Positions 4,295-47,468 of a stretch of 64,000 nt of DNA are shown piece after piece. Under the pieces are notes generated by a model. The model saw only the letters and a program-made list of their open reading frames with translations. It had not been told where the DNA came from and did no database searches. Source of the stretch: a phage; the sequence record PZ154897.1; one strand, 5' to 3'. The first letter of the stretch is position 1. Each line of letters starts with the position of its first letter. The translations under genes were made by a program, and so were the position numbers.

Positions 4295-4375
4295 TCACTG
4301 GCGTCCGAAGACGCCTTTAGTTTTAAGATTGTTACGATAGAACTGCATCACATGTTCATTATGGAAATTACTCAT
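4295..4375 (-). CDS. stp: Stp peptide (26 aa)
   Basis: hand translation gives [26 protein letters not shown], matching T4 Stp as I recall it; TAATG overlap with ndd stop. Confidence 0.9.
4300..4315 (-). other. UUCG-tetraloop RNA hairpin inside stp coding sequence
   Basis: ggcgtc-cgaa-gacgcc on + strand = GGCGUC UUCG GACGCC on mRNA. Confidence 0.5.
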
Positions 4376-4830
4376 TAATATGCCTGCAAAACAAATTTAA
4401 AGTTATCAGCCAACATACGGTTCATTTCTTCAAGCGTTTGATACTCAGAATGATGATTACGAGTAAACGCTAAAGCTAACTGACCTTTTCCAAATCCCGT
4501 CGTCAGAGGTTTCATCTTAGAAGCAGGTAGATAAAATACTGTGTATGGAACATTATTATTTGCAATAGTACGCGCAAGCTGAGATCGACGCTGGCGAATA
4601 TGACTTAGAACTGCACTGAATCCTTGCTTAGAACGCTGATTACCTACATAAAATCGTGCAGATACACATGGACTATCAAATGGACCACCAAATTTGCTCA
4701 CTAAAAAGTAAAATCCAGGGTTAGACAAAATGTCTTTATGCGGAGTTCCAAAAACCCATTCACCGCCCTTGATTGTACCAATAACAGTTGCGCCTGCATT
4801 ATTCAAATCAGTAACAGTCATATATTTCAT
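4375..4830 (-). CDS. ndd: Ndd, host nucleoid disruption protein
   Basis: 151-aa ORF, T4 Ndd length; position next to stp. Confidence 0.8.
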
Positions 4831-4889
4831 GTTAATTTCCTCTAATTATTTTCTACTCCAAGGCCGCATGAATGCACACGGCCGATAAA

Positions 4890-5105
4890 TTAATCGTCGC
4901 AGTCGACGCTCAATTCCCAGAACTCTTCTACAGTATAAGTTTCAGTATCATTTTCAATACAGAAACGTTCATTGCTGTTGTTTGCTAAAGTAGCGTTAAC
5001 TGTCATTTTCTCGCTAGTGCTCTTAAGAGGAGAAATACGAATTAACTGATCACCATTATCTAAGCAAAAAATTTCGCCAACTTTTATATCTTTAAAAAAT
5101 TTCAT
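4890..5105 (-). CDS. hypothetical protein (71 aa)
   Basis: ORF. Confidence 0.5.
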   Translation of the reverse strand: MKFFKDIKVGEIFCLDNGDQLIRISPLKSTSEKMTVNATLANNSNERFCIENDTETYTVEEFWELSVDCDD

Positions 5106-5113
5106 AATTCACC

Positions 5114-5221
5114 TCAAGGAGTATAAAATCCAAATGCAGTTGTTGACCATCCCATCCAATATGGGATATTTGCGCCAATGTAAAATACAAGAATATAAAA
5201 CCAAATGCTTAGTAAATTCAT
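5114..5221 (-). CDS. micro-ORF, hydrophobic peptide (35 aa)
   Basis: hand-translated; ATG overlaps stop of upstream ORF (TAATG). Confidence 0.35.
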   Translation of the reverse strand: MNLLSIWFYILVFYIGANIPYWMGWSTTAFGFYTP

Positions 5222-5418
5222 TATTTTACACCATTCCAAATTGTTTCAACCACAGATTTCAAACCATTTTGGTGAATATCCATTCCGACAACCGCCATCA
5301 AATAGATTCCAACCACAACTGAACCCAAGGCGAAAATCAGCATGAAAATGAATAAAGCTGGAAAAATATTATCGAAAAACCATTCCATAAATGTAAAAGC
5401 ACTGCGTTTACGCTTCAT
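5221..5418 (-). CDS. small membrane protein (65 aa)
   Basis: ORF-track 5221..5439 trimmed to ATG with GAGGA SD. Confidence 0.5.
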   Translation of the reverse strand: MKRKRSAFTFMEWFFDNIFPALFIFMLIFALGSVVVGIYLMAVVGMDIHQNGLKSVVETIWNGVK

Positions 5419-5425
5419 ATTTTCC

Positions 5426-5539
5426 TCACATAAATCCAAAGTAAGCGTTTAATACATCAATCATTAAAATGATTGGGAATATACTTAAAACTACTAGTAT
5501 TATAACTACATTCCATATAGCTTTAACAATCTTTTTCAT
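5426..5539 (-). CDS. small membrane peptide (37 aa)
   Basis: internal ATG of ORF 5426..5674; GGAGG SD; early promoter directly upstream. Confidence 0.5.
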   Translation of the reverse strand: MKKIVKAIWNVVIILVVLSIFPIILMIDVLNAYFGFM

Positions 5540-5559
5540 TTTCTGTTCCTCCGTAGTTG

Positions 5560-5598
5560 ATAGGGTAATAATACCACAGAGGAACAGTCTTGTAAACA
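5560..5598 (-). promoter_or_regulatory. T4-type early promoter (GTTTAC -35 / TATTAT -10) with flanking 9-bp inverted repeat
   Basis: minus strand reads GTTTACaagactgttcctctgtggtATTATTA; near-identical to cassette at 60905-60962. Confidence 0.6.
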
Positions 5599-5604
5599 AC
5601 TTTT

Positions 5605-5703
5605 TTAAAAATATTCGTAATAAATGTGAATACCAACTACTACTGCTGAAACTTGCGCAACCCACCATGCACAAGCAATAAGTACAGAATTCAAAATTTT
5701 CAT
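5605..5703 (-). CDS. micro-ORF, hydrophobic peptide (32 aa)
   Basis: hand-translated; GAGG SD; ATGA overlap with upstream micro-ORF. Confidence 0.4.
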   Translation of the reverse strand: MKILNSVLIACAWWVAQVSAVVVGIHIYYEYF

Positions 5704-5786
5704 AATAACCTCATCACAAAAGTAAATGTTAAACAAATTAATGGAATACTAATTAACCAAACGAAACACCACCATAATGAACTCAT
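5700..5786 (-). CDS. micro-ORF, hydrophobic peptide (28 aa)
   Basis: hand-translated; ATGA overlap with stop of ORF 5783..6046. Confidence 0.4.
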   Translation of the reverse strand: MSSLWWCFVWLISIPLICLTFTFVMRLL

Positions 5787-6046
5787 AGTTCAATCTCAGC
5801 GATTTTCATTTCATTACTATTAATAGCCGCTTTAAGACTATCTGAAAGAATTACATTCCAGTGGTCATTCATATGACCATTAACTAAGCGTGTAATTTCT
5901 TCGGGAGTTGAAAAATAAGGCGTATCAGACTCCCAATGCGATAGTCCCAAGCGAGTATAAATCATACCTTCATCACCGCTAGAATATTCAACTGACACAA
6001 ACTCATCAGTTATTTTATGTTTAGCGTAATAAAATTTAAATTTCAT
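5783..6046 (-). CDS. hypothetical protein (87 aa)
   Basis: ORF with GGAGG SD and early promoter upstream. Confidence 0.55.
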   Translation of the reverse strand: MKFKFYYAKHKITDEFVSVEYSSGDEGMIYTRLGLSHWESDTPYFSTPEEITRLVNGHMNDHWNVILSDSLKAAINSNEMKIAEIEL

Positions 6047-6069
6047 TTTTACTCCTCCGTAGCTGATAG

Positions 6070-6104
6070 TTGTATAGTACCACGGTCCTTGTGGTATGTA
6101 AACT
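6070..6104 (-). promoter_or_regulatory. T4-type early promoter (TTTACA -35 / TACTAT -10)
   Basis: minus strand reads cagTTTACAtaccacaaggaccgtggTACTATA then conserved leader. Confidence 0.6.
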
Positions 6105-6119
6105 GTTTTGTGAAAATTT

Positions 6120-6677
6120 TTAAATGGAAAGATACCATCCGTTGTAGTTGCTTTTTCTTACAACCTTACGAAGGTCTTCTCTATCACCGATGAACTTCGG
6201 AGTGTACTGGATGACACCTGGATGAATTTCTTTAGTGTTGAATATAATTATACAGTCAGCGACTTGGTGATTCAGAATGGGCCCTAGATTTATTCCAGAA
6301 CCGTATGGATACTCTCCGCTGCATCCGGTTGTTACCGAAATCCAACGTGAGTCAGTTTGGTGTGTCTTAACTTCTACACGAAGCCCACAGTATTTTGGAT
6401 GCGCCAATACATCCCATGCGTATGTATACGGGTCATTAACATCCTCTTGGCCTTTGTTAACATACCCGCTTAGCCAATCTGCTACAAAAAACTCTGCATA
6501 TACAGCGATACGACATCTTTCAATAACTTCTGCTTTATCCTGATTAGGATTTTGTTTTAAAGAGTATCTTGCTGTATCAGCAATTTTGACCTTCATTTCA
6601 CTAGTCAAATCATTGTTCGATAGGGTAAATGTTGGAATCTGAAATAGTCTCTGTAAACCCGGATTCGTTTTCTGCAT
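6120..6677 (-). CDS. denB: endonuclease IV (DenB)
   Basis: 185-aa ORF, T4 DenB length; synteny between ndd region and rIIB. Confidence 0.75.
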   Translation of the reverse strand: MQKTNPGLQRLFQIPTFTLSNNDLTSEMKVKIADTARYSLKQNPNQDKAEVIERCRIAVYAEFFVADWLSGYVNKGQEDVNDPYTYAWDVLAHPKYCGLRVEVKTHQTDSRWISVTTGCSGEYPYGSGINLGPILNHQVADCIIIFNTKEIHPGVIQYTPKFIGDREDLRKVVRKSNYNGWYLSI

Positions 6678-6742
6678 TAAACTTTCCTTTTACGTCGGAA
6701 TCACTGATATTCATATAATAAATCATAGTTTCTCTTAAAACA

Positions 6743-6760
6743 AAAGGGCCGAAGCCCTTT
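6743..6760 (-). terminator. intrinsic terminator, UUCG-tetraloop hairpin plus U-tract
   Basis: aaagggc-cgaa-gcccttt; mRNA AAAGGGC UUCG GCCCUUU followed by UGUUUU. Confidence 0.6.
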
Positions 6761-6763
6761 ATT

Positions 6764-6958
6764 TTATTTGAATTGTGCAATTCTTTTCTCTAAACAATCT
6801 GCATAAGATTTCATTGAGATAAACTGCGAAAGCAACAGTTCTTGCTCAACTGCATTAACCGTTGAAAACTTTTCACTTTCTAAAAATTTGCTCAATGCAT
6901 TAATTTTGAGCATTAATTGATCGTATTCTTCTTTTACTCGTGCTTGATAACCTAACAT
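6764..6958 (-). CDS. hypothetical protein (64 aa)
   Basis: ORF between rIIB and denB. Confidence 0.5.
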   Translation of the reverse strand: MLGYQARVKEEYDQLMLKINALSKFLESEKFSTVNAVEQELLLSQFISMKSYADCLEKRIAQFK

Positions 6959-6971
6959 AATTTTCCTTAGT

Positions 6972-6989
6972 TAAGGGCCGAAGCCCTTA
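6972..6989 (-). other. UUCG-tetraloop RNA hairpin overlapping rIIB stop
   Basis: taagggc-cgaa-gccctta. Confidence 0.5.
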
Positions 6990-7925
6990 TTTAAATTGTT
7001 CAGTAACGTCTTCAACTACTTCGTATTGGCAGGTACGCATTTTAGCATCGTTGTAATCAATTGGAATTGATACTACATCGCGAGGATGTACTTTAACTTT
7101 TACAACTCGGCTGGTTGAACTGCCAAAGTGACGAATATAAGATTTAGAACACACATGCAGACCATGAGAACAAGTTTGTGTATCATCGTCATTCACACGA
7201 GTACGTGGCATTTTAACTACTTTACCCGGACTGTTATCAAAGGTGTTTGAGTGACAGTCAAAGTAATTGCTACGAACTACTTTCCAAGCATAGAAGTAAC
7301 CATCTTCTGTAATTTCAATATCGTTTGCTACCAAGAAATCAAAGAGTCGAGATACCGCTTTTTGGCTTGGGTTTTCCAACAGATTTTCCAAGAACGGAAA
7401 ATAAAATTCAAAGTTTTCGCCTTTTTCCATCGAGTCAAGAATACGATCAACCAAACCAGACCGCAATTCAATATTTTGATAGAACAGGCTTCCACCTTCA
7501 ATTCGAACATCGCCGGAAATATATTTTTCAACAGCGCGACGAACATTAATTTTTTGTGCCGCTTCTTCCAATTTATCTGCAACAAGCAGATTAAGAATTT
7601 CCTGGAAGTTTGAATGAGTATTAGGAGTTGCGTTATAAGTTACACCGTCAACAGTAATTGAAATGAATTTTTTAGATGCATTCCAAATAATGTCAGATTT
7701 AGCAACTGGAGCAATAACTGCATCGCTATTAACTTTAACTGTAATATCACCGCTAATAGTAACTTTAGGGCGTTTAGCTTCTTCAGCATTTTTCAAAACA
7801 CGACGGATTGTGTCAACCGATACATCCTTCCAATAAGCCAATTCCTGTTGGGTGTAATTACCGCTTGAATACAGTTTAACAATTTCAGCTTGTTCGTTTT
7901 TGGTCAGGCATTTAATATTGTACAT
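6987..7925 (-). CDS. rIIB: rIIB membrane-associated protein
   Basis: 312-aa ORF, T4 rIIB length; adjacent to rIIA. Confidence 0.9.
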   Translation of the reverse strand: MYNIKCLTKNEQAEIVKLYSSGNYTQQELAYWKDVSVDTIRRVLKNAEEAKRPKVTISGDITVKVNSDAVIAPVAKSDIIWNASKKFISITVDGVTYNATPNTHSNFQEILNLLVADKLEEAAQKINVRRAVEKYISGDVRIEGGSLFYQNIELRSGLVDRILDSMEKGENFEFYFPFLENLLENPSQKAVSRLFDFLVANDIEITEDGYFYAWKVVRSNYFDCHSNTFDNSPGKVVKMPRTRVNDDDTQTCSHGLHVCSKSYIRHFGSSTSRVVKVKVHPRDVVSIPIDYNDAKMRTCQYEVVEDVTEQFK

Positions 7926-7936
7926 AATTTTCCTTA

Positions 7937-10114
7937 TTAGGCCGCAAGGGCCTTCATAGTTTTAGCGATTTGAGAAACTTCATCATCACTTAAAGAGTTG
8001 CGATATCCGATGAAGTCGGAAACAATACGGAATTTCTTGGTAAACTCAGCAACCATTTTATCACTGTTTTTTGAAGCATTATTTGATAATACATCAAAAA
8101 GATTAGTTACTGTCCAGATGTCATGACCGATGGTATCTCTTCCACCATTAAAATATACACCCTGTAATGAACTAACCATATTAGCAAGTCGTGTATATTC
8201 TTCAGAAACTTCATCTACACTGAAGTACTTCATCATAAAATCTAACTCAGGATACTTGATAATTTTATCAATATATCGTTTAGCTGAACTTGAATAACCT
8301 ACATACTTATCATAATCTACATCATCAAAAGCATCTACATATAAATCACGCAGAGTTTCAAAAATACATTGGCACTGACCGAGTTCTTTTACCTTTTTCT
8401 GTAAAAGCGGACGAATAACATAAAATTCATTAATGCCAATAAGATTAGCCATACGAATCAAAATATTCATAGATGGATGACAGAGAGATGTAGTACCATC
8501 CATAGAGAAAATATCAGAACGATGCATATACGCTACATAACCAGTAATTTCATCTGCTTCTGATGTGAGCGTAAACAGTTCCTCTTTTTCCCAGCGCCCA
8601 TCTTTAATTTCAAACTTAAATACTGTAGCAGCTTTAGGACGAGGAGCTTTACTTTTAACTACCTTTGGAATATAGCTTTTAACTAAAGCTTCAATTTCTG
8701 ACAAATAATGAATGTTAACTTCATCACTTTCAAACATTGCCATAATATCAGGAAGTAAATCAATCTGTGATTCTACTTCCGGATTAATAAACAGAAGACG
8801 CTCGTTGTGATGAATATTTAAAGTGTTATTAAATTCACTATCATCTAATGCACGTGCTAATCCACGGACAATATTAACACGATTTTTAATATTATCAATA
8901 ACGATATTAATTTTTGTTGTATTAATACCAAACAGACGATAACTTGATGCAACGGCTGAAGTTTCATGGCTTTGCTTAATGCGTTTCAGTCGAGGGTCAA
9001 GATTTACTTCATACACAACCCCTGCATTGCATAACTTACTGTCAGGTTCAAACATGCTTTGCATCTTCTTATATGACAGATTTTTAGTCGTGAATTTGAC
9101 CGAATTACTAATCATATAATCTCGAGCAGAATATCCCATCTTCATCAATTCACGGTATGTATGACGAGGAGATGTAGATTCTTTAAATCGTTTTACATCT
9201 TCATTAAATGCCTTCTCACTGAGCTCTTTAACACGCTCAATAATATTTTTACGAGTACGATCATCTAGTGAAAGAGCCTCACGCGATGGAGCAATATCAA
9301 GTGAACCCATTGGAAACTTAATGTAATTCACTTCATTACGAATGCTTAACCAGTTACGGTCTCTAATAACACCGTCTATAGGATAAACAATACCACCATA
9401 GATAGCATATAATCCACCACGATCTGGCCAGTATCTTTCTGGATTTACGCCGTAATAATCATCAAAATCAGGAAAATAATCAATTTCGCGGTCAAGACCA
9501 TTAATGATAGCCAAATCTTTGAATGGTCGCATGATATAAGAAACTTCATAAGCAAAGTTTCTAAAGTCTTTTTCTTCAACTGGAACTACGATTTCAATAC
9601 CAGTTTTATCGTCTGGACCCATTTCTTTTACGAATGTAGGTTTAATCTGCGGACCGTCACCATCCATGTAAGCTACATAACCACGAATTTCGCCTTTATG
9701 ATATGAAGTGATACTAAACGTATCAGTATAACTAAACGGAGATTTAGAACCTAAACCAAATCCACCAATGAAATCATTAGATTCAGCCTTAGATGAACTG
9801 AAGTATGAATTATACAACCCAGGAGAATTATCATCACCCTGAATATCAAAATCGCTCATACCCGGACCAAAATCTCGACAAACAAATCGCGGATCTAATC
9901 GTCCTGGAACTTGAATGATAAATTTTTCAGGATTTCCATTAAGAGCATGGGCATCAATCATGTTGGTAATCAATTCACGAACCACTGCGCGAATCTTGTT
10001 TGTATACAAATCAGATGACAGAATTTTAAATACTTTAGGAGACGCTGTGATGCTAAATGCTTTTGATTTAGAACCATTACCAAGAATTGTTTCTTTTTCA
10101 GTGGTGATAATCAT
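7937..10114 (-). CDS. rIIA: rIIA protein with GHKL-type ATPase domain
   Basis: 725-aa ORF, T4 rIIA length; N-terminal [10 protein letters not shown] / GLGSKSPF ATPase motifs. Confidence 0.95.
7939..7953 (-). other. short GC hairpin at rIIA/rIIB junction
   Basis: aggcc-gcaag-ggcct. Confidence 0.4.
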
Positions 10115-10124
10115 AATTTCCTCA

Positions 10125-10328
10125 TTAATTCATATTGCGTTTAATAACTTCAGCAACTTCTAGTAGTTCATCTTTAGTTGCAGTGTCGGATTGAATTTTA
10201 TCTCTAATATCCTTAAAGCGGTTTTTAAACTCTTCGGCTTCTCCCATATCGAAAAAGCGTTGAATGATTCTATATTCTCGATGAACTGCTTTATCAAATA
10301 GTTCTAAATTTACTTTATATGATTTCAT
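10125..10328 (-). CDS. hypothetical protein (67 aa), rIIA.1 position
   Basis: ORF between gene 39 and rIIA with early promoter upstream. Confidence 0.55.
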
Positions 10329-10351
10329 TTCAATATCCTCATTTGCCCAAT

Positions 10352-10384
10352 TAATTATACCACATCCTTGTGGTAAAGTAAACT
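10352..10384 (-). promoter_or_regulatory. T4-type early promoter (GTTTAC -35 / tggTATAAT -10)
   Basis: minus strand GTTTACtttaccacaaggatgtggTATAAT; 29/30 identical to promoter at 57950. Confidence 0.65.
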
Positions 10385-12200
10385 ATTGGCTCATCCATTC
10401 TTTACGAAGGTCAGCATTATCTCCCATGAGCATTTCAAAAAGCTCTTTCCAGTTCTCAGGAAGTTTAACAACATCATAAACTGGGTTTTGAATCATCTCA
10501 CGATATTCAGATTTTTCCAAAGAGCCAAGTCCCTTAATATAACGGATGCTATGTTTAGGTAGAGCATCTTTGGCACTCTCATATTCAGCGACTGTATAAA
10601 ACCATTCTTGTTTTTTACCGACCTGAGCGATGATTACAGGAGTTTTGACAAAGCGAATTCTTCCTTGTTCAAACAGTTCTGGCCAATTACTAAAAAATCC
10701 GAGCAGAGAAGGATAAATGCTTCCTAGACCATCATGGTCAGCATCGGTCATAATTGCAATATTATGATAATTCAAGTTTTCGGCTTTTTCACCAAGAACT
10801 AATCCAGTGATTGCGCAAATATCAAACAGTTCTTTGTTTTTAAGCATATCAGCATATGACATACCCCAACTGTTGAGAACTTTACCACGTAATGGATAAC
10901 CACCATGAAGTTCTTTATCACGAACATCAATAAGATATCCAATAGCAGAATCACCCTCAGTCAAGAAAAGAGTAGTATCAGCATCTTTACCACAAAGATT
11001 CGCTTTAATATGTTTATGAACCTTAGCTTTAGAAGCCTTTTTAGCTGCTTTAGTTTCTGCTGCTTTTTCTGCCGCCAATTTACGAGCAAGGGCAGCTTCA
11101 ATGATTGGCATTAAAATTGCTTCATTATTTAAAATAGCACGTGAAATCTTTTTAGCATCAAGCTGAATATGACTACGGATTTCACCAAATGGAGAAGTAA
11201 GTCGTTCTTTAGTTTGAGAATCAAATCGCATGTTTTTCATATCACGGACAAACATAACGATAGTCAAACATTCTTTGACACGTGCTTTAGTTACATCAAT
11301 TTTGAATTTACGTTTGATTTGTGGAATAAGGTCTTCACAAATATCATCCATAACGCAGTCAATGTGATGGCCACCATTCTTAGTATGAATGTTATTGACG
11401 TATGTTAATTGACGAAAACCATCCGGTGAACGACCAACAGCAATAGAACAATTTTCTTGTTCTTGAACGATAGCATGTTCATCATACTGTCGTGCATATT
11501 TCTTAAAATTACCCTGAACCTTTTTACCATTAAAGGTAAATTGAATATCAGGATAAACTACTGCAAGTGTCTGGAGACGATCCAGTGTAATGTCAAGATA
11601 AACTTGAGATAGCTCATTAGTTTCAAATGACATAAAATCAGGAATGAAAGTAACGCGAGTTCCTTTCCATTTTCCAGGAATAGTTTCCCACGATTTATTT
11701 TCCATGCCATTTGAACAACGAACTACAATATTATTTTGACCATCGCCGGTTTCACCGACAAACATCACAGAAAAAATATTAGTTAAACTAGAACCAACAC
11801 CATTCATACCACCAGTGACGCGTTCTTTATCATCACCGAAGTTACCACCTGCTTTTGGAATAGTCCATGCAGCAACTGGACCAGGAATTTCTTCACCGGT
11901 AGGTGTTTTAACCATCGCCTGTGGAATACCGCGACCGTTATCTTCAACTGTTACTTGATTGTTTTTAATAGTAACATTAATTTTATTTGCGAATTTAAAC
12001 TTAGTACGAATACCTTCATCTACTGAGTTATCGATAATTTCATCAATAAGCTTAACAAGACCAGGTACATACTGAACACTTTCCCATTTACCAAACAGAA
12101 AGCGCTCATGCATTTCATTAGCTGAAGAGCCAATGTACATGCCGCTACGCTTTTTGATATGTTCAATATCGCTCAGAATTTTAATTTCATTCTTAATCAT
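10383..12200 (-). CDS. 39: DNA topoisomerase II large subunit (GyrB-like ATPase), contiguous 39+60
   Basis: 605 codons from first ATG (ORF track starts at GTG 12203); GHKL ATPase and TOPRIM-like motifs; single uninterrupted ORF. Confidence 0.95.
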   Translation of the reverse strand: MIKNEIKILSDIEHIKKRSGMYIGSSANEMHERFLFGKWESVQYVPGLVKLIDEIIDNSVDEGIRTKFKFANKINVTIKNNQVTVEDNGRGIPQAMVKTPTGEEIPGPVAAWTIPKAGGNFGDDKERVTGGMNGVGSSLTNIFSVMFVGETGDGQNNIVVRCSNGMENKSWETIPGKWKGTRVTFIPDFMSFETNELSQVYLDITLDRLQTLAVVYPDIQFTFNGKKVQGNFKKYARQYDEHAIVQEQENCSIAVGRSPDGFRQLTYVNNIHTKNGGHHIDCVMDDICEDLIPQIKRKFKIDVTKARVKECLTIVMFVRDMKNMRFDSQTKERLTSPFGEIRSHIQLDAKKISRAILNNEAILMPIIEAALARKLAAEKAAETKAAKKASKAKVHKHIKANLCGKDADTTLFLTEGDSAIGYLIDVRDKELHGGYPLRGKVLNSWGMSYADMLKNKELFDICAITGLVLGEKAENLNYHNIAIMTDADHDGLGSIYPSLLGFFSNWPELFEQGRIRFVKTPVIIAQVGKKQEWFYTVAEYESAKDALPKHSIRYIKGLGSLEKSEYREMIQNPVYDVVKLPENWKELFEMLMGDNADLRKEWMSQ

Positions 12201-12225
12201 CACTTATCCTCGTTTGGTTTCGGGA

Positions 12226-12254
12226 ATATTATACTCCAGTAATCATAAAGCTAA
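12226..12254 (-). promoter_or_regulatory. possible middle-type promoter for gene 39 (MotA-box-like AGCTTTA, 12 bp, TATAAT)
   Basis: minus strand tAGCTTTAtgattactggagTATAAT; box has one mismatch to TGCTT. Confidence 0.35.
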
Positions 12255-12270
12255 AGGCCCGAAGGCCTTT
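12253..12270 (-). other. UUCG-tetraloop RNA hairpin
   Basis: aaaggcc-cgaa-ggccttt immediately after lipoprotein gene stop. Confidence 0.55.
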
Positions 12271-22032: not shown

Positions 22033-22054
22033 AAGGACTCCCGAAGGAGTCCTT
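22033..22054 (-). terminator. intrinsic terminator after soc (9-bp stem, UUCG loop, U-tract)
   Basis: aaggactcc-cgaa-ggagtcctt followed on mRNA by UUUUCAUUUU. Confidence 0.7.
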
Positions 22055-28446: not shown

Positions 28447-28791
28447 TTAAAAGAATTTAAATTTTTTCTTTGACCTTTTATTAAATGCATCTTGTAGTTG
28501 CATTGTAATACATTTTTCTACATGAGGAGCTAACTCAGCTTTTCTTTCTTGGTCAAGAACAGCAAAGTCCATTACAACCTTTCCATCAACCCAATCCAGT
28601 TTAGTTACATACACTATATGTGTAGAACCATCTTCTAGTTTAATGACAATCTCCTGGATAACATTTTCCATGGCAGATTTAATTATCTTAAGAGATTCAT
28701 TAAAAAGACGTTCTTTTCTTTCTTCTTCCCCCTCCGAAGAGGGGGATTCATCGATAATTTCTAGATCTAAATCTAAATCATCTTTATTCAT
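28447..28791 (-). CDS. 40: gp40-like head vertex assembly chaperone
   Basis: ORF downstream of uvsX; first ATG overlaps uvsX stop (ORF track starts at GTG 28809). Confidence 0.55.
   Translation of the reverse strand: MNKDDLDLDLEIIDESPSSEGEEERKERLFNESLKIIKSAMENVIQEIVIKLEDGSTHIVYVTKLDWVDGKVVMDFAVLDQERKAELAPHVEKCITMQLQDAFNKRSKKKFKFF
28728..28745 (-). other. stable UUCG-tetraloop hairpin inside gene 40 coding sequence
   Basis: ccccctc-cgaa-gaggggg (7-bp GC-rich stem). Confidence 0.5.
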
Positions 28792-30044: not shown

Positions 30045-30891
30045 AATCAACCGCTATTGGATGAATAGCATTAAACTTATGAAACGCTTCTGATTTTTCT
30101 TTGCGCGAAACACACATGCGAAGAACCTTTAATGGCTCGTCTTCTTCACCCAACGATTTTCGTTTTTCAATATTAGAAGTTTTCCAACGAGCTTGCTCTG
30201 GAAACTCTTTATTGATTTGCTCAAGAGCTCTATTATGTTTTGAATTACTACGAATTGAGCTGCATCCACCGGGAGCCTGCGCTTTTCCAGATACAACCAA
30301 ATATTTGAACAAGGCCAAATGCGGATAACCTTGATTAATTAAATTGAGAAATGCATACATATCTTCGCATAAATCAATTTTTCCATACCCAATTTGTTCT
30401 GTTGTAAGTTTTCCAAGGTCATACCATGTATTCGTGAATCCATATGAATTTTCACGGTAATTACCCCAAGATGAAGTAATTTTAAAAATAGGTAGACGAG
30501 CATGGCCATGATAATACCCGCAATCCATGGCATCTTCAACGTATTGAATCAATTCATAGAACTGCTCACGGGTTAACTGATTAATTTTATCTACGCAGCG
30601 ACGATCATCTTTCTTTCGCATTGAACTCATACGAATAGTAGTATCATCATCAATCATCCAAATTCGTTGACCTGCATACATATCAGTAATCGCTTTACGA
30701 GTACCAGCAATTCCATTGACATCATCAGGAATAGTTATAATTTTAGCTCTAGACCCATAGGCATCATAATAAGCTTTTTCTTCATGTTCACGCACTACAA
30801 TATGGGGTTCATAATCAGTCGGAAACATATCAAGGGCAGAAACTGCCCCTACACGTTGATAACTTGGAATTACAAATTGAATCATTTCCAC
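30043..30891 (-). CDS. glycosyltransferase with DxD motif, candidate HMC-DNA glucosyltransferase (not T4 beta-gt)
   Basis: 282-aa ORF between 42 and uvsX; MIDDDT motif; T4 beta-gt as I recall it is 351 aa and unlike this sequence. Confidence 0.6.
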   Translation of the reverse strand: MEMIQFVIPSYQRVGAVSALDMFPTDYEPHIVVREHEEKAYYDAYGSRAKIITIPDDVNGIAGTRKAITDMYAGQRIWMIDDDTTIRMSSMRKKDDRRCVDKINQLTREQFYELIQYVEDAMDCGYYHGHARLPIFKITSSWGNYRENSYGFTNTWYDLGKLTTEQIGYGKIDLCEDMYAFLNLINQGYPHLALFKYLVVSGKAQAPGGCSSIRSNSKHNRALEQINKEFPEQARWKTSNIEKRKSLGEEDEPLKVLRMCVSRKEKSEAFHKFNAIHPIAVD

Positions 30892-32566: not shown

Positions 32567-32584
32567 AGGGACCCGGAGGTCCCT
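32567..32584 (-). terminator. intrinsic terminator after gene 43 (hairpin plus U-tract)
   Basis: gggacc-cgga-ggtccc followed on mRNA by UUUUUCA. Confidence 0.65.
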
Positions 32585-35293: not shown

Positions 35294-35351
35294 AGATATT
35301 CCTTAGTTTATAGCCCGAGTTATTAGGCTCTTGATATATTATACTCCAAAT

Positions 35352-35369
35352 AAGGGGCCGAAGCCCCTT
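35352..35369 (-). other. UUCG-tetraloop RNA hairpin upstream of gene 43
   Basis: aaggggc-cgaa-gcccctt followed on mRNA by tggagTATAAT. Confidence 0.55.
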
Positions 35370-35371
35370 GC

Positions 35372-35593
35372 TTAAATTAATACCAGTTGTCGGTGAAAAA
35401 TTGTCAATCCATCTGCATTAATTGACTTAACCACTGCGGTAAAGTGTTTTTGTTCTGGGTGAACTAATTTTTGAAATTCTACCTGAAATTTTAGTTGGAG
35501 GTTTTCTGGTAAATCAAAAAGTGTTTCTGTTGCAGAAAGATTATATTTTTCTTTAAGAGACGCCATGTATTCTTGCGGAGTTATAGCAGTCAT
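35372..35593 (-). CDS. hypothetical protein (74 aa) between regA and 43
   Basis: ATG 1 nt after regA stop; weak SD; ORF track extends it to 87 aa overlapping regA. Confidence 0.4.
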   Translation of the reverse strand: MTAITPQEYMASLKEKYNLSATETLFDLPENLQLKFQVEFQKLVHPEQKHFTAVVKSINADGLTIFHRQLVLI

Positions 35594-35594
35594 A

Positions 35595-35963
35595 TTAATT
35601 ACCAATCGTATATTTAGGAACGAGTTTCCATTCATGTTTTTGTTTAAAAGAAATAACTCGGAAGTTATTAGTTAAATCTTTCATAAAAGTTCTTTGACCA
35701 GGAACGATTTCAATTAGTCCCCAATCTTCTAATAGCCATGCGATTGAATCACGACGAACTTCATCTTCTTCTGTCATTTCAACCTGGCGACCATCCATAC
35801 GAAGCATTTCTTTAAAATGAACGATATAGTATAGTCCTTTTTTCTGAAGAATATGACAGGACTGATACAGAACTTTATCTTTATTATTAGCAATTCCCAT
35901 ACGAGTCAAAGTTTCTTTTACTTTCAGAAAATCTTCAGGTTTTTTAAGAGTAATTTCAATCAT
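35595..35963 (-). CDS. regA: RegA translational repressor
   Basis: 122-aa ORF matching T4 RegA as recalled; synteny 62-regA-43. Confidence 0.92.
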   Translation of the reverse strand: MIEITLKKPEDFLKVKETLTRMGIANNKDKVLYQSCHILQKKGLYYIVHFKEMLRMDGRQVEMTEEDEVRRDSIAWLLEDWGLIEIVPGQRTFMKDLTNNFRVISFKQKHEWKLVPKYTIGN

Positions 35964-37523: not shown

Positions 37524-37537
37524 AGGGCCGAAGCCCT
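37524..37537 (-). other. short UUCG-tetraloop hairpin between 45 and 44
   Basis: agggc-cgaa-gccct. Confidence 0.45.
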
Positions 37538-38681: not shown

Positions 38682-38873
38682 TTAGTCATAATAATCAGTA
38701 ACAGTCCAAGCTTCATTTCTGTTGGACATTATTTTCGTATATTCTGATTTAAATGCATTCTTAAGCATAGATTCAGTAACTATATGCTCTTCATTAGAAA
38801 AATTATTTCTCAGAATATATCGTTTTATTTCAGGAATAGTTAATAGATGCTGTCCAGTTGAATATTCTGCCAC
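38682..38873 (-). CDS. hypothetical protein (63 aa), 45.2 position
   Basis: ORF. Confidence 0.55.
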   Translation of the reverse strand: MAEYSTGQHLLTIPEIKRYILRNNFSNEEHIVTESMLKNAFKSEYTKIMSNRNEAWTVTDYYD

Positions 38874-38924: not shown

Positions 38925-39641
38925 ATGAATTATAAACTAATTTATGAAAAGTTAATCTCTAATGCTAAATCTCGAAAACTTGATTGCTATACTGAATCTC
39001 ATCACATTATACCACGCTGTTTAAACGGTAGTGATGATGCTTCAAACTTAGTAGATTTAACGCCAGAAGAGCACTATGTAGCTCATCAACTTTTAGTAAA
39101 AATTTATCCTTCTGAACCAAAATTAGTCTATGCTGCTAACATGATGACAGTTTCTACGAAATACGCTAAACGTAACAATAAAACTTTCGGCTGGATTCGT
39201 CGTAAACTCTGGGAAATAGAAAAGAATAAAGAGTTCTCCAAAGAGACACGAAAGAAAATGTCCGACGCAGTAGCTAATAAAGCAAGACTAACTTGTCCAC
39301 ATTGCGGTAAGTCTGGATTAAGCGGGAATATGAATCGATGGCATTTTGATAACTGCCCAAATCATCCCAATCCTAAAGTTAGACCGCCAATGTCTAAAGA
39401 ACACAGAAATAATATCTCAAACGGGCTTAAAGCAATCGTTCTTGAAGAAACATCCTGCGAATTCTGCGGAATGATAGGCAAGAAATGCGTTATCGCAGCG
39501 CATAGAAATTTCTGCAAGAAAAATCCAAATGGACGCAAGAAAACTGAAAAGACTGGTACTTGCGTCCATTGTGGTAAAGTTACCACTTTCGGAAATTTAT
39601 CAAGATGGCATAATGATAATTGTAAATATAAACCTAGCTAA
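38925..39641 (+). CDS. free-standing HNH homing endonuclease with C-terminal zinc-finger repeats
   Basis: ESHHIIPRCLNGSDDASNLVDLTPEEHYVAH HNH motif; repeated CxHCGK...RWHxDNC units; opposite strand to all neighbours. Confidence 0.8.
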   Translation: MNYKLIYEKLISNAKSRKLDCYTESHHIIPRCLNGSDDASNLVDLTPEEHYVAHQLLVKIYPSEPKLVYAANMMTVSTKYAKRNNKTFGWIRRKLWEIEKNKEFSKETRKKMSDAVANKARLTCPHCGKSGLSGNMNRWHFDNCPNHPNPKVRPPMSKEHRNNISNGLKAIVLEETSCEFCGMIGKKCVIAAHRNFCKKNPNGRKKTEKTGTCVHCGKVTTFGNLSRWHNDNCKYKPS

Positions 39642-41322: not shown

Positions 41323-41337
41323 TTTGTATCCAATTGT

Positions 41338-42192: not shown

Positions 42193-42452
42193 AAAAGATT
42201 CCTTTTAATGTATCTTTTAGACCATTCTATCATATCATCATAATCTAAAAAGTATTCATCAAATTCAGCCATGCAAACAACACCTTGTGCTGCTTTTGAT
42301 GTGATATAAATTATTCCAACATATCTAGAATCTTCTTCGGTGTAATCAATATTTGCTATGAATTCATCGTTAATGTCAAATGTCGAAAACTTCACAGTAT
42401 GCATCCTTAATACAAGATACAGCCATATCTTGTAATGATTTAGGTGTGTCAT
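42189..42452 (-). CDS. hypothetical protein (about 87 aa, start uncertain)
   Basis: ORF overlapping next ORF by 77 nt. Confidence 0.45.
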   Translation of the reverse strand: MTHLNHYKIWLYLVLRMHTVKFSTFDINDEFIANIDYTEEDSRYVGIIYITSKAAQGVVCMAEFDEYFLDYDDMIEWSKRYIKRNLL

Positions 42453-42639
42453 TATCTAAAATGTTGAAGTTAAAAGATACAGCCCAGTCAGTGCAGACCG
42501 TGACCTTTTTAATACAATTATCTTCAACCTCTAACGGTTCAAACCAATATTCAATAATTTCTTTATGCCCAATATCATCTTTTACTTCACATTCAAAATG
42601 CTGACTCATCATAACATTTTTAAATTCATCAAAAGTCAT
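42376..42639 (-). CDS. hypothetical protein (87 aa)
   Basis: ORF; ATGA overlap with gene 47 stop. Confidence 0.5.
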   Translation of the reverse strand: MTFDEFKNVMMSQHFECEVKDDIGHKEIIEYWFEPLEVEDNCIKKVTVCTDWAVSFNFNILDNDTPKSLQDMAVSCIKDAYCEVFDI

Positions 42640-43655: not shown

Positions 43656-43792
43656 ATATCAAGAACCGTCATTGAAATGCAAAATAAAATTATTGAAATA
43701 AATCCATCTGGAGTGCTAAAGAACCCAATCCAACATGCTCTAGTGAATAGATAAAATGCAAGAAAAAGTATCACATATCCAAGAAATATCAT
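43652..43792 (-). CDS. small membrane peptide (46 aa)
   Basis: hand-translated; GGAG SD; ATGA overlap with gene 47 start. Confidence 0.4.
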   Translation of the reverse strand: MIFLGYVILFLAFYLFTRACWIGFFSTPDGFISIILFCISMTVLDI

Positions 43793-43815
43793 TATATCAA
43801 ACTCCGTATAAAGCT

Positions 43816-43833
43816 AAAGGGCCGAAGCCCTTT
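43816..43833 (-). other. UUCG-tetraloop RNA hairpin at a-gt stop
   Basis: aaagggc-cgaa-gcccttt. Confidence 0.55.
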
Positions 43834-45034
43834 ATTTTGTAATAATGTCAAACTGTTCTTTAAAGCAGAAGCTTGAATCTTGATGCTGATACAAAAATTC
43901 ATAAGCTTTTTCACGTTCACGGTCATAAAGAGCTCGGTCAGATGACAGTTCTTTAATACGTTCAAATGTTGATTCCATGTCATTTTCATCAAACCAAACG
44001 ATACCGCTATCGTGTGAAATTAATGGAGTATTATCAACACGGAATTTTAAATTTTCGCCAGTACATTTCCAAAATACCGGAATTGTTCCACATGCACCAA
44101 GCTCGAGATGAGTATATTCTAAAGAACGTTGTAGATATTTTTTGTCCAACTTACTCAGCTGATAACCAAATCCGGATTTACTCATGCGTTCAAGCATTTC
44201 GCTATTTACATAACGGTCGAGAATTTGCGTCGGCAAATTAGGAGCAATTTTAATTTGGTCTACTTGGTGAAGACGATAATACTCGTATGGAATTCCTTTT
44301 TCTTTAATAGGAATGAACGCTGGAGAACGTTCCAGACCTTCCATAATAGTACTTAGTCCTGCAGGTTTAAGATGTTTTTCATGAAAATCAAACATCTGAT
44401 AAAAACCTTTCCATGTAGTCGTACGACCAATCCAACGGTTGATATTCATGTTAATTTCAGAAACATCTTTCCAGTAGGTTGACCGAACCTTCGCAATATC
44501 CATAGGAGGCTGAAAGTTATATACTGCCGGTGCTTCTTCAATATCATCAAACAGAGAAACTGTTTCAGGATACCATTCTTTCATCAGAACTTTATTAAAA
44601 TCACCATTATCAGAATGGCTAAAAATAACATCAGCTCGACGAACAGTTTCTTCTAATCCCAAATTTCGGCGCAAAGAAAGAGAAGAATGGTCATGTTGAT
44701 AAACTACAACACGAACAGAAGGTTTAATGTTATCAATAATTTTTTTATAGTTATTAATAGTGTCTTCTTCAACCGAAGTAGCAGGAACTGAATTGATAAT
44801 TAGAATATCACAATCATTTACCAGCTTAAGTGTTTTATCGTATTCTTTTGCCAATAAAACTGGAATTGAAAATGATTTATAATCATGCGCGCAATTACGA
44901 GTAAATGATTTATCTTTAGCATAAACCAAAGTCACTTCATGACCATTTTTAATAAACCAATCACGTTGCTCGAGTGAGAATTTTGTTACACCACAACCTT
45001 CAAGACCTCGAGCCATAAAAATACATACTTTCAT
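43832..45034 (-). CDS. a-gt: alpha-glucosyltransferase for HMC-DNA
   Basis: 400-aa ORF, T4 alpha-gt length; synteny 47 - a-gt - 55. Confidence 0.85.
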   Translation of the reverse strand: MKVCIFMARGLEGCGVTKFSLEQRDWFIKNGHEVTLVYAKDKSFTRNCAHDYKSFSIPVLLAKEYDKTLKLVNDCDILIINSVPATSVEEDTINNYKKIIDNIKPSVRVVVYQHDHSSLSLRRNLGLEETVRRADVIFSHSDNGDFNKVLMKEWYPETVSLFDDIEEAPAVYNFQPPMDIAKVRSTYWKDVSEINMNINRWIGRTTTWKGFYQMFDFHEKHLKPAGLSTIMEGLERSPAFIPIKEKGIPYEYYRLHQVDQIKIAPNLPTQILDRYVNSEMLERMSKSGFGYQLSKLDKKYLQRSLEYTHLELGACGTIPVFWKCTGENLKFRVDNTPLISHDSGIVWFDENDMESTFERIKELSSDRALYDREREKAYEFLYQHQDSSFCFKEQFDIITK

Positions 45035-45085
45035 TTAATATCCTCTTTGTTTTGGTTTATTTTACCAAAAATTTATAAAGCAATA

Positions 45086-45103
45086 TAGGAGCCGAAGCTC
45101 CTA
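45086..45103 (-). terminator. UUCG-tetraloop hairpin followed by U-rich tract
   Basis: taggagc-cgaa-gctccta; 7-bp stem. Confidence 0.5.
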
Positions 45104-45271
45104 TCCACATAATACGTCATACAGAGGCTCATTTGAACTTTTAAATCGAATGGGCTTGTACGTAATAGTTCCTTCGGCTTTAGCTTTATCATAAGACTCT
45201 TTAAAACGTCTCATTCTTTCTGCTTTGCCTTTACGGATTTTATCGAAATTTTCAGAAGTCTGGGTGTTCAT
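45101..45271 (-). CDS. possible small basic protein (56 aa)
   Basis: hand-translated ORF filling a gap. Confidence 0.35.
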   Translation of the reverse strand: MNTQTSENFDKIRKGKAERMRRFKESYDKAKAEGTITYKPIRFKSSNEPLYDVLCG

Positions 45272-45274
45272 CTT

Positions 45275-45481
45275 TCACAGTTGCCACCATTTTTTGACTT
45301 GATAAGAATCAACCCACACTTTCATATTAGGGTCTGCTCTTACAATAGGAGGATTAACTTCTTTAATTGAACTATCATGGTATTCTTTTTCAGAAATTTT
45401 CACACAAAGATGACCGTTCAAAGATTCAGTAAATCCTGCATTAATTTTAAGACGCTTGAATTTTACGTGTGTAAGCATCAA
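45275..45481 (-). CDS. hypothetical protein (68 aa)
   Basis: ORF. Confidence 0.45.
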   Translation of the reverse strand: MMLTHVKFKRLKINAGFTESLNGHLCVKISEKEYHDSSIKEVNPPIVRADPNMKVWVDSYQVKKWWQL

Positions 45482-45764
45482 TCATATCCTCAATCTGCGA
45501 TCTAGTAGTCTTCCAAAGAATACTAATGAGTTCATCGTTATATGGCTGTTTTAGAATATCCCGACTTTTCTTGATAGCATATTCGTATTGAGCAAAATTA
45601 TTGTTTTCGGCTGCAATCTGAGCATGTTTATAAAGACGGTTCAGTTCGCGTTTATTTTTAGACAATAACTTATTTGCTTTTCTTTCTGCTTCAAGACGGT
45701 TCTTTTCTTCAATAGAAGAAATAAGCTTTTCAACTTCATCATTAATTTCGGATTTATCAGTCAT
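45447..45764 (-). CDS. hypothetical protein (105 aa)
   Basis: ORF. Confidence 0.5.
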   Translation of the reverse strand: MTDKSEINDEVEKLISSIEEKNRLEAERKANKLLSKNKRELNRLYKHAQIAAENNNFAQYEYAIKKSRDILKQPYNDELISILWKTTRSQIEDMIDAYTRKIQAS

Positions 45765-45765
45765 A

Positions 45766-45984
45766 TTATTTCTCTAATATAAAATAAAAATCATCATCTG
45801 TTAAATGATACCGATAGTTTAATTCTACACCATTAGATTTAAAAGCGGTATCATACGGATTTTCTGGATCAATATCAATGTCAAGAGCTAAAACTTCCCT
45901 GAGATACATTTTAAGTAAATAGGGAATAGCTTCAACTTCAGGTATTTCTTCCAAGAATCCGGAGAGGTTAATCGTTAGCCTCAT
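45766..45984 (-). CDS. hypothetical protein (72 aa)
   Basis: ORF directly downstream of gene 55. Confidence 0.5.
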
Positions 45985-46525
45985 ATAAAAAATCCAAACT
46001 AGGAGAATCGTCTACAACACTTTTCTTTTCAGCCCCCGGTGTTCTATAGGTTGATTCTTCGTAATGCGTCATTTTATCGTAGATGTCTTGAATAAAAGTT
46101 TCATCTACTAACGCAACCATATCGTCGTCACGGCTGTCATAGACATTGTGAACGAAGTAACTATATTTCTTTGCAACTTCCTTACGTTCTTTTTTAATAC
46201 GCTGGACGAATGCATTAAAACAAGCTTGAGTTATATACGCATGTGGGTTTTTATATTTCGTTTCATCAAAATTATGAAGCCCCTTAATAGAAGCTTCTAT
46301 ACCATCTGCAATCATTTCTTGTTTCCAAGACTGGGTGTATCCTGAAAAGTTGAAACGTTTAGATAAGCCTTCTGCAATAAGCATAATGGCTAATCCGATA
46401 GTATCATTCTGACGAACTACTTTATTTGGGTCTTTATTATTTGCTAATTCTGTTTTCCAATCAATAATAGCTTGTAAAAGCTCTTTATTGTTTACGTAAT
46501 TATATTTAGGCTTAGTTTCTGACAT
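45968..46525 (-). CDS. 55: late-transcription sigma factor
   Basis: 185 codons from internal ATG, T4 gp55 length; synteny. Confidence 0.9.
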
Positions 46526-46603
46526 TTTCACCTCTTAGCTCAATTCATAGATCTATTATATCATAATATTTGAAGATCTATCTTAAAGCATAGAGGATAT
46601 CAG

Positions 46604-46873
46604 TTATCTAAGTAAACAGTATGCTTGGAACACTTTCTCCATCATCTTTTTAAATTCATGAATATCTATGTAATGATCATTAATATCAGCACGATATAAA
46701 AAGTCTAAAAACTTTTTATGGGTGTTAGAATATTTACTTTCATTTAATTCAGAAACATGGCTTTCCCAATATCCAACACCAATCTTATTTGGGAAAAATG
46801 AAATTTTCATGTATTGGTCAACATAGAAAATACCAAAATTTTCAATAGCAATAGAAATATTAATTAATTTCAT
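46604..46873 (-). CDS. hypothetical protein (89 aa)
   Basis: ORF. Confidence 0.5.
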   Translation of the reverse strand: MKLINISIAIENFGIFYVDQYMKISFFPNKIGVGYWESHVSELNESKYSNTHKKFLDFLYRADINDHYIDIHEFKKMMEKVFQAYCLLR

Positions 46874-47085
46874 GCATTCATCAACTTAGCCGCTTCAAGA
46901 GCTGCATCTAGTGAATCAAATTGGTCAACGTATTCAATCAATTCGCCGTAATTAGCGTATAACCACCATTGGCTAAATTCATACTCAAGGATGAATCCAT
47001 TTCCTTCAATTTGAGTTAAACCAATACCGTTTGTATTTACTTCATATCCGGCAAGACGCAAATCGTTAATAAGAGCTTCGTTCAT
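46870..47085 (-). CDS. hypothetical protein (71 aa)
   Basis: ORF; ATGA overlap. Confidence 0.5.
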   Translation of the reverse strand: MNEALINDLRLAGYEVNTNGIGLTQIEGNGFILEYEFSQWWLYANYGELIEYVDQFDSLDAALEAAKLMNA

Positions 47086-47087
47086 AA

Positions 47088-47414
47088 TTATACCTTAGCA
47101 ATTTTCAGGTCTGCAAATTTTTTCTTGCGTTGATTTTTCATGCGACGAATAGTTTTATCGGAAATTTCATGCTTTTGATAAGCTTTAGATTCTACACCAA
47201 AAGCTTTAACATCAAATTCTGACAAGATATATTGAACCAACAATTCACGGACAGTATTGCGTCCAATCTTCTGATCATTCTGTTTCATCATTTGATGAAG
47301 CTCTTTTTCCCATTTATCCAAAATTTGAGGAGTTACAATATCGCCTTTTTCTAGCAAAGAAACTACTTTATCATATGCGTAAGAATTAATGACGTTTTTA
47401 ATTTGAATAGTCAT
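47088..47414 (-). CDS. hypothetical protein (108 aa)
   Basis: ORF. Confidence 0.55.
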   Translation of the reverse strand: MTIQIKNVINSYAYDKVVSLLEKGDIVTPQILDKWEKELHQMMKQNDQKIGRNTVRELLVQYILSEFDVKAFGVESKAYQKHEISDKTIRRMKNQRKKKFADLKIAKV

Positions 47415-47452
47415 ACATTATCCTCAATTACGTTAAAATTTTATTATCCAAA

Positions 47453-47468
47453 AAGGGCCGAAGCCCTT
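47453..47468 (-). other. UUCG-tetraloop RNA hairpin
   Basis: aagggc-cgaa-gccctt. Confidence 0.5.

Follow-up and report, generated by a model that had tools for sequence, protein, structure and literature searches.

C(UUCG)G hairpins of the T4 type as probable punctuation of prereplicative transcripts in a Tequatrovirus genome

Overview of the hairpins

A 64 000-nucleotide stretch of phage DNA (sequence record PZ154897.1; referred to below as the window) specifies, on its transcribed strand, twelve short hairpins that are very probably T4-type C(UUCG)G tetraloop RNA elements, placed at cistron 3′ ends as punctuation of the polycistronic prereplicative transcripts. The pattern was confirmed to be real and under selection: the hairpins are confined to the sense strand, are coupled to upstream stop codons, are kept at their junctions through pairing-preserving changes of the stem and preferentially carry the UUCG loop. 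A scan for perfect Watson–Crick stems of at least 5 bp in the sense (minus-strand) RNA of the window gave 11 perfect C(UUCG)G hairpins with stems of 5–9 bp, to which a motif search together with the stem scan added one C(UCCG)G hairpin (32567). A C–G closing pair and a perfect stem of 5–9 bp are present in 12 of 12 hairpins and the UUCG loop in 11 of 12, the UCCG loop at 32567 being a UNCG variant. The initial annotation of the window, which was made from the sequence alone, had listed twelve such sites and had suggested a stem scan of this kind; all twelve are present, with coordinates that agree to within 1 nt.

BLAST searches against phage genomes identified the window as Tequatrovirus (T4-like), with ∼97% identity to RB51, RB68 and SP21535 and with 99% identity to phage N2 across 27–47.6 kb. 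Mapping of the T4 proteins onto the window recovered the T4 prereplicative gene order (motA, 52, ac, stp, ndd ... rIIB, rIIA, 39 ... soc, 56 ... 41, 40, uvsX ... 43, regA, 62, 44, 45 ... a-gt, 55 ... nrdC.11), with these genes on the minus strand throughout. Because the genes run on the minus strand, the plus-strand sequence gggc-cgaa-gccc is read as GGGC-UUCG-GCCC on the mRNA, which is how it had been interpreted at the outset. Orthologous sites exist in T4 for at least ten of the twelve, in two cases being visible only with a resequenced T4.

Enrichment and strand asymmetry

UUCG is the commonest tetraloop in the window, capping 11 of the 149 sense-strand hairpins with stems of at least 5 bp, and the runner-up loop occurs five times. 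In 300 dinucleotide-preserving shuffles the mean number of UUCG hairpins was 0.32 and the maximum was two, compared with the 11 observed, and the binomial probability of the observed count is 3e-12. The hexamer CTTCGG is present in 18 copies on each strand; stems of at least 4 bp flank 12 of the 18 sense copies and none of the 18 antisense copies. The complete T4 genome displays the same asymmetry, with 19 of its 20 UUCG hairpins on the locally transcribed strand, including the hairpin after gene 23 in the plus-strand late region. The orientation of the hairpins thus tracks transcription in T4, which marks them as a feature of RNA and not of DNA. A scan of the whole 64-kb window at the Rfam gathering thresholds returned no family matches.

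Placement relative to genes and stop codons

Ten of the twelve hairpins are located at cistron ends, where the upstream stop codon overlaps the stem or is at most 15 nt away; all are given here as minus-strand RNA with window coordinates. At five sites the stop lies within the 5′ arm. The hairpin at 6972–6989 (UAAGGGC-UUCG-GCCCUUA, 7 bp) has the rIIB stop UAA as the first three bases of its stem, with the denB.1 Shine–Dalgarno sequence 4 nt downstream, and that at 12253–12270 (AAAGGCC-UUCG-GGCCUUU, 7 bp) overlaps the 39.1 stop by 1 nt. The 5′ arm at 43815–43834 (UAAAGGGC-UUCG-GCCCUUUA, 8 bp) contains the a-gt stop UAA and that at 45085–45104 (AUAGGAGC-UUCG-GCUCCUAU, 8 bp) contains the a-gt.2 stop UAG. 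At 47453–47468 (AAGGGC-UUCG-GCCCUU, 6 bp) the 55.3 stop UAA overlaps the first bases of the stem by 2 nt; this hairpin is not intragenic, unlike what the T4 annotation suggests, and its placement outside any open reading frame (ORF) by the initial annotation was correct.

The gap between stop and stem is 2–3 nt at three further sites and 12–15 nt at another two. The stem at 6743–6760 (AAAGGGC-UUCG-GCCCUUU, 7 bp; a stem_loop feature in the T4 record X75802) begins 3 nt past the denB.1 stop, that at 35352–35369 (AAGGGGC-UUCG-GCCCCUU, 7 bp) 2 nt past the stop codon of a small extra ORF that separates regA from gene 43, and that at 37524–37537 (AGGGC-UUCG-GCCCU, 5 bp perfect, 9 bp when G·U and A–U extensions are counted) 3 nt past the gene 45 stop, with the gene 44 start 34 nt away. 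The stem at 32567–32584 (AGGGACC-UCCG-GGUCCCU, 7 bp) begins 12 nt past the gene 43 stop and that at 22033–22054 (AAGGACUCC-UUCG-GGAGUCCUU, 9 bp) begins 15 nt past the soc stop. The small ORF next to the 35352 hairpin (35372–35600; ∼75–87 amino acids) is missing from T4, and the slot between regA and gene 43 is filled in relatives by different ORFs, each followed by a hairpin of the same type.

The remaining two hairpins are embedded in coding sequence. The hairpin at 4300–4315 (GGCGUC-UUCG-GACGCC, 6 bp) spans the five final codons of stp (G V F G R Q); its 3′ end is 2 nt ahead of the UGA stop and 5 nt ahead of the ac Shine–Dalgarno sequence GAGG. The intragenic hairpin at 28727–28746 (UCCCCCUC-UUCG-GAGGGGGA, 8 bp) occupies codons 15–22 of gene 40 and begins 37 nt past the uvsX stop; uvsX and gene 40 overlap (AUGA), so that there is no intercistronic space at this junction.

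The coupling to stop codons extends to related phages. With ORFs of 30 codons or more considered, stop codon and stem overlap or are separated by at most 5 nt in 68 of 93 unique hairpin contexts, and by at most 15 nt in 84. This tight spacing bears on whether the hairpins might instead serve the downstream gene, either by insulating or presenting its ribosome-binding site or by forming a protective 5′ stem-loop after processing, which we consider to be quite unlikely. The next Shine–Dalgarno sequence does lie 2–10 nt past the stem at 4300, 6972 and 6743 and at the rIIB>denB.1 junction of relatives, yet the distance to the start codon is variable (12 to >50 nt) where the distance to the upstream stop is tight, and no gene follows closely after the putative terminators of soc and gene 43. 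A protective role of the kind reported for the leader of T4 gene 32, the mRNA of which is stabilized by a 5′ CUUCGG hairpin (PMC8948821), is of similarly low probability, in that the middle transcripts of 39, 43, 47 and a-gt begin past the hairpin and so do not contain it.

Conservation in related phages

Six IMG/VR scans yielded ∼170 T4-like phage loci, from which about 10–20 distinct sequences were compared per site. Of the 229 unique GC-rich hairpins with a tetraloop on the sense strand of these relatives, 92 carry UUCG, and the complementary loop CGAA does not rank with the commonest. Hairpins at three junctions, rIIB>denB.1, 45>44 and regA>43, persist at 50–80% protein identity, with a loop that is mostly UUCG and with stems that include GGGC, GGAGGC, GGGGAC, GGAGAC, GGGCC and GGAGCC. 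At rIIB>denB.1, a hairpin is positioned just ahead of the denB.1 Shine–Dalgarno sequence in 19 of 19 distinct sequences, in which rIIB identity falls to 50%; its stem is of at least six kinds (among them GGGC, GGGGGC, GGAGGC, GGGGAC, GGGGC and GGAGAC) and its loop is mostly UUCG, the exceptions being UUUG, UCCG and one shortened loop. The regA>43 junction carries a hairpin in 13 of 14 distinct relative sequences, with five different stems. At 45>44 the hairpin is kept in relatives with different stems and with UUCG, UUUG, GAAA or UACG loops; GAAA, UUAC and UACG are occasional loops at these last two junctions taken together. Among 24 pooled junction hairpins, double-sided changes are found at five of the six stem positions.

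Coding-embedded hairpins in gene 40 and stp

The initial annotation had argued that the two intragenic hairpins constrain codon choice, and had proposed a comparison of synonymous sites. In gene 40, five lineages (gp40 identity of 52–100%) all read (U/A)CCCCCUC-NNNN-GAGGGGGA, with UUCG or UCAG as the loop; a profile-based rescan for distant gp40 homologues gained just one new lineage. Codons were tabulated for nine sequences with 57–100% gp40 identity. Pro17, Ser18, Glu20, Gly21 and Glu22 are encoded by CCC, UCU, GAG, GGG and GAA in all but one lineage, and the lone exception changes CCC to CCU and GAG to GAA at third positions that pair with each other, so that the double change is both synonymous and compensatory. 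By comparison, 28 of the 37 other codon columns with invariant residues use 2–4 synonymous codons. These observations support selection on an RNA structure inside gene 40, as judged from codon usage and pairing. The sample for stp is smaller. The hairpin is kept wherever stp exists in relatives, and the changes seen are GGC to GGU (giving a G·U pair), a terminal G·U pair and UUC to UUU in the loop (UUCG to UUUG), which agrees with the selection on structure proposed for this gene also.

An RNA end has been reported in the gene 40 region. The legend to Fig. 5 of Kim et al. (2025; PMC12152347), which cites Hinton (1989), places an RNA 3′ end, seen in vivo, directly past a stem-loop within the 358 nt that precede gene 41, a region that holds the uvsX stop and the gene 40 start. 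In the window, this 358-nt stretch has no strong local hairpin other than that at 28727, and the published stem-loop is therefore most likely to be the 28727 UUCG hairpin.

A further intragenic C(UUCG)G hairpin is present in T4 (123409–123424, locus L005; CGGCGC/GCGCCG), in the first codons of alt.-1. It is located ∼30 nt past the alt stop, an arrangement that parallels uvsX/40.

Terminators, middle promoters and RegB sites

A consensus terminator scan flags the hairpins at 6743, 22033, 32567 and 45085, and of these four only the first three are followed by real U-runs. The stem at 6743 continues into UUUUGUUUU, that at 22033 into UUUUUUCAUUUU and that at 32567 into UUUUUCAU, in each case with the anatomy of an intrinsic terminator; judged by these features, the three would be canonical intrinsic terminators. 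The hairpin sequence at 22033 is identical in T4 even though Soc is only 47% identical. The 47453 hairpin has a UUUUU tail, seen by eye, followed by GGAUAAUAAAA (47439–47449), a match to the RegB consensus, and its sequence suggests that it is probably a canonical intrinsic terminator as well. The U-tract is weak or interrupted after 12253, 35352, 37524, 43815 and 45085, and inspection of the stem-scan flanks found none after 4300, 6972 and 28727. In relatives, ∼60% of the unique UUCG hairpins have at least five U residues in the 9 nt after the GC core.

The fourth flagged site has a poor U-tract. The tail of the 45085 hairpin (UAUAUUGCUUUAU) is a promoter element, namely the MotA box of PmobB/Pa-gt.1, a middle promoter that has been mapped in T4: the stem is followed by UAUAUUGCUUUA (the MotA box) and by UAAAAU, forming a middle promoter upstream of a-gt, and the tail in full (UAUAUUGCUUUAUAAAUUUUUGGUAAAAU) comprises the MotA box and then the −10 element. 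Of the four terminators named in the initial annotation, those at 6743, 22033 and 32567 are therefore retained, that at 45085 (given as 45086) is reassigned to promoter sequence and 47453, which had been left out, is added as a probable terminator.

Other hairpins are similarly placed ahead of promoters. At 12253 the stem leads directly into a MotA box (UAGCUUUA) that a 12-nt spacer separates from UAUAAU, the whole constituting the middle promoter P39; the 43815 stem is followed by a MotA box and UAUAAU (P47) and by GGAG at 43802–43805; and UAUAAU is found 10 nt downstream of the 35352 hairpin. Transcription start sites of middle promoters mapped in T4 were taken from Table 1 of the Hinton review (PMC2988021). 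By homology, the T4 P39 start (5349) corresponds to window position 12221, 32 nt downstream of the 12253 hairpin, the P43 start (29933) to 35333, 19 nt downstream of the 35352 hairpin, and the P47 start to 43784, 31 nt downstream of the 43815 hairpin, while the PmobB/Pa-gt.1 start (38682) lies 33 nt past the T4 copy of the 45085 hairpin (T4 38715–38734). The recurring layout is thus stop codon, hairpin and MotA-box promoter and, since the middle transcripts begin downstream of the hairpin, the hairpin would form the 3′ end of the upstream transcript. The mapped P47 start also lies past the 47.1 AUG (43784–43792), from which it follows that translation of 47.1 would be possible only on transcripts extending through the a-gt hairpin.

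This layout lends some weight to a mainly transcriptional function, in which all of the hairpins would be full or leaky terminators or pause sites and any stabilization of RNA would be incidental. We regard this as somewhat unlikely overall, and the same holds for the more specific proposal that early transcripts are held back until MotA-dependent promoters fire, which would time expression. Four hairpins are located 19–33 nt upstream of the homologues of mapped middle-promoter starts, the frequency of U-rich tails in relatives is as given above, the U-tract merges into the MotA box (UUUUUGCUUUU) in several relatives and, at the several sites whose 5′ arm shares bases with a stop codon, hairpin formation could be influenced by a ribosome terminating there. 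Against such a function, the sites at 4300, 6972 and 28727 have no U-tract at all and yet are among the best conserved, and intrinsic terminators do not require UUCG over other loops.

The P43 start, merely 19 nt past the 35352 hairpin, implies that the expected MotA box (at about −30) falls on the hairpin itself (GGGGCUUCGG); at that position the box would have an unusual spacing from UAUAAU (35333–35369). This overlap, together with the sequence GCTTCG in 7 of 11 hairpins, is what could be said for an action at the DNA level, whether as cruciforms, as mimics of the MotA box (GCTTCG against TGCTTTA) or as targets of recombination or homing. Such an action is highly improbable. A palindrome is symmetric, yet the UUCG loop is strictly on the sense strand, and stems vary while pairing and loop are kept. 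GCTTCG was dropped as a conserved mimic on finding that the base preceding CUUCGG differs among orthologues (GC, CC or AC), and the Hirao-type DNA mini-hairpin motif GCGAAGC was rejected as occurring at chance level (two matches against 3.1 expected).

RegB motifs are found 3 nt past the 47453 hairpin and 9 nt past the 43815 hairpin. In T4, RegB cleaves GGAU upstream of ORF 55.2, one of two GGAU sites that are cleaved, and moderately cleaves GGAG upstream of 47.1; the same study, from Uzan's group, states that T4 intergenic stem-loops often have UUCG tetraloops (PMC1702504). At the 55.3/55.2 junction of relatives in which the hairpin is a different one, the GGAUAAUAAAA motif is again located 3′ of the stem.

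Proposed roles in transcript punctuation

Punctuation of transcripts at cistron 3′ ends could take two forms, the division of sites between termination and RNA-end protection being one that we infer from the sequence. At the sites with U-tracts (6743, 22033, 32567 and probably 47453) the hairpins would bring about full or partial intrinsic termination, and those at 12253, 43815, 37524 and 35352 would do the same more weakly. Termination would separate upstream early units from downstream units with their own MotA-dependent promoters 19–33 nt further on. At the sites without a U-tract (4300, 6972 and 28727), and on read-through transcripts generally, the hairpin would set a nuclease-resistant 3′ end by stopping 3′–5′ exonucleases after downstream Rho-dependent or endonucleolytic events, such as cleavage by RegB shortly past the 47453 and 43815 stems. 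Messages upstream of the hairpins (uvsX, rIIB, a-gt and others) would then be longer-lived than those downstream. The hairpins of gene 40 and stp may be embedded in coding sequence because the flanking genes overlap or abut and leave no intercistronic space. A role as a 3′-stability element or RNase barrier, which had been suggested at the outset for sites other than the terminators, is plausible, with indirect support from the RegB motifs past two hairpins and from the published RNA 3′ end in the gene 40 region, both of which fit a role in setting 3′ ends. The purely transcriptional, downstream-gene and DNA-level explanations are less well supported than transcript punctuation.

Several points weigh against this account. 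A literature search for Term-seq or 3′-end maps of T4 or T4-like phages found nothing usable, so that the assignment of sites to termination or end protection derives from their sequence. The CUUCGG hairpin sequence was sought in the text and supplements of Kim et al. (2025) and was not found, so that the link between the published RNA end and the 28727 hairpin is an indirect one. Pairing in the pooled alignment is 98.6%, a value that is partly circular owing to the construction of the alignment from detected hairpins; the informative point in these comparisons is instead the persistence of hairpins at the same junctions. The relatives lack phylogenetic independence. Some genera that retain the P39 promoter have no hairpin upstream of it, and the element is therefore dispensable at individual junctions. 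Finally, ViennaRNA calculations on the same stems gave the UUCG loop no energy advantage over UUUG, GAAA or UUUU, so that the extra stability attributed to this loop rests on the literature and not on the energies computed here.

A more specialized possibility, which we put forward tentatively and consider rather doubtful, is that the gene 40 and stp hairpins are dedicated coding-embedded regulatory elements and that the hairpins with a stop codon in the 5′ arm are translation-sensitive attenuators. In several T4-like genera the gene 40 hairpin is kept, its stem showing no synonymous change other than one compensatory double change; as a regulator it would set the ratio of uvsX to 40/41 expression through a protected 3′ end of the uvsX mRNA. 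In attenuation, a ribosome at the stop codon would block folding and allow read-through. It is an old observation that T4 delayed-early RNA synthesis requires ongoing translation, and attenuation of this kind would provide a structural basis for that requirement.

Comparison with known systems

Neither the class of element nor its location and abundance in T4 are new; most of the individual sites are likewise known already, and GenBank records annotate several of them as stem_loop or terminator. The original description of the T4 CUUCGG hairpins is reportedly that of Tuerk, Gauss, Thermes, ... and Gold (1988), in PNAS 85:1364. PMC4371310 and PMC8948821, both citing Tuerk et al. (1988) for CUUCGG hairpins in T4 mRNA, describe them as abundant in T4 and mostly intergenic, with the capacity to stop reverse transcriptase and with diverse functions, and the statement in the initial annotation that UUCG hairpins were first noted in T4 is borne out by these citations. 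The window hairpins share with the T4 set the loop, the C–G closing pair, the (X)nCUUCGG(Y)n form, the phage group and the mostly intergenic placement. Nothing essential differs; the phage is ∼97% identical to RB51 and RB68 and is not T4 itself, the gene 60 bypass hairpin is absent and the nrdC.11 hairpin is truncated by a deletion.

Other stem-loop systems are related to a lesser extent. Rho-independent terminators of Escherichia coli and its phages have the GC-rich stem-loop and U-run that are also seen at 6743, 22033, 32567 and 47453. Unlike such terminators, the hairpins at 4300, 6972 and 28727 have no U-tract, the interrupted tracts of several others double as MotA boxes and the window hairpins strongly prefer one tetraloop. 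Intercistronic 3′ stabilizers include the REP elements of malE–malF and 3′ hairpins that block PNPase and RNase II. The window hairpins resemble them as stable stem-loops that end an upstream cistron in a polycistronic RNA, and the in vivo 3′ end reported in the gene 40 region lies just past such a stem-loop; unlike REP-type stabilizers they are much smaller (14–22 nt), single and defined by their loop, and they are only putative stabilizers. The UNCG tetraloops of rRNA belong to the same loop family, as do the UCCG and UACG variants at orthologous sites, but cap helices within a folded RNA, whereas the window loops belong to isolated mRNA hairpins.

The finding is mainly a positive control, in which a reading of raw sequence recovered a textbook RNA motif and the relatives confirmed that it is under selection. 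What the analysis adds is a quantified strand asymmetry, the coupling to stop codons, the turnover of stems with retention of the loop and the synonymous and compensatory evidence from gene 40, which together describe elements tied to stop codons across T4-like phages and often located directly upstream of MotA-box middle promoters.

Stem deletions in the T4 reference sequence

The T4 RefSeq entry (NC_000866) has a 1-nt deletion within the GC stem at five hairpins, at ∼167730, 167950, 27180, 31900 and 40810, which correspond to 6743–6760, 6972–6989, 32567–32584, 37524–37537 and 47453–47468 in the window. Resequenced T4 (MT984581) has perfect stems at both of the sites that were checked, including the 6743 hairpin, and some dozen further records of resequenced T4 or T4-like phages give alignments of 353 nt and not 351 nt. 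The five deletions are probably old gel-compression errors at CUUCGG hairpins, and two of them are confirmed to be specific to the reference. The deletions mask hairpins in the reference and have probably led to a distorted annotation of ORF 55.3, which in the window (47467–47667) encodes 66 amino acids and ends at the UAA that opens the hairpin; the T4 annotation gives 79 amino acids and runs through the hairpin, in a frame that results from one additional C ahead of the stem and the loss of a C inside it. The annotated C-terminus of T4 55.3 is thus probably an artefact.

Other hairpins and neighbouring genes

A 4-bp remnant of the nrdC.11 terminator hairpin is found at 62382–62393 by comparison with T4. 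A 52-nt deletion relative to T4 55381–55433 removed the 3′ arm and U-tract of this hairpin, and with them the −35 element of the next early promoter. At 10328–12200, gene 39 is apparently fused to gene 60 (60plus39 in the RB32 annotation) without the mobA/60.1 insertion, and consequently the gene 60 bypass hairpin of T4 (T4 2837–2854), which is also of the C(UUCG)G type, is missing from the window.

Five other GC-rich hairpins, all with loops that are not UUCG, were noted on the minus strand at gene ends or close to them. Three of them are those at 4106–4122 inside 52.1, 4861–4884 between ndd.1 and ndd (a stem_loop feature in X75802) and 48413–48431 after nrdH. The hairpin at 7939–7953 is located at the rIIA/rIIB junction and has a CUUGC loop, and that at 30831–30851 follows gene 42 and has a UUU loop. 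Two mobile-type genes occupy positions that differ from those in T4: a fragment of an HNH (mob-like) homing endonuclease on the plus strand at 38925–39326, with 45.2 and 46 on either side, and, near nrdG, a minus-strand GIY-YIG gene of the seg-like kind at 50272–50670.

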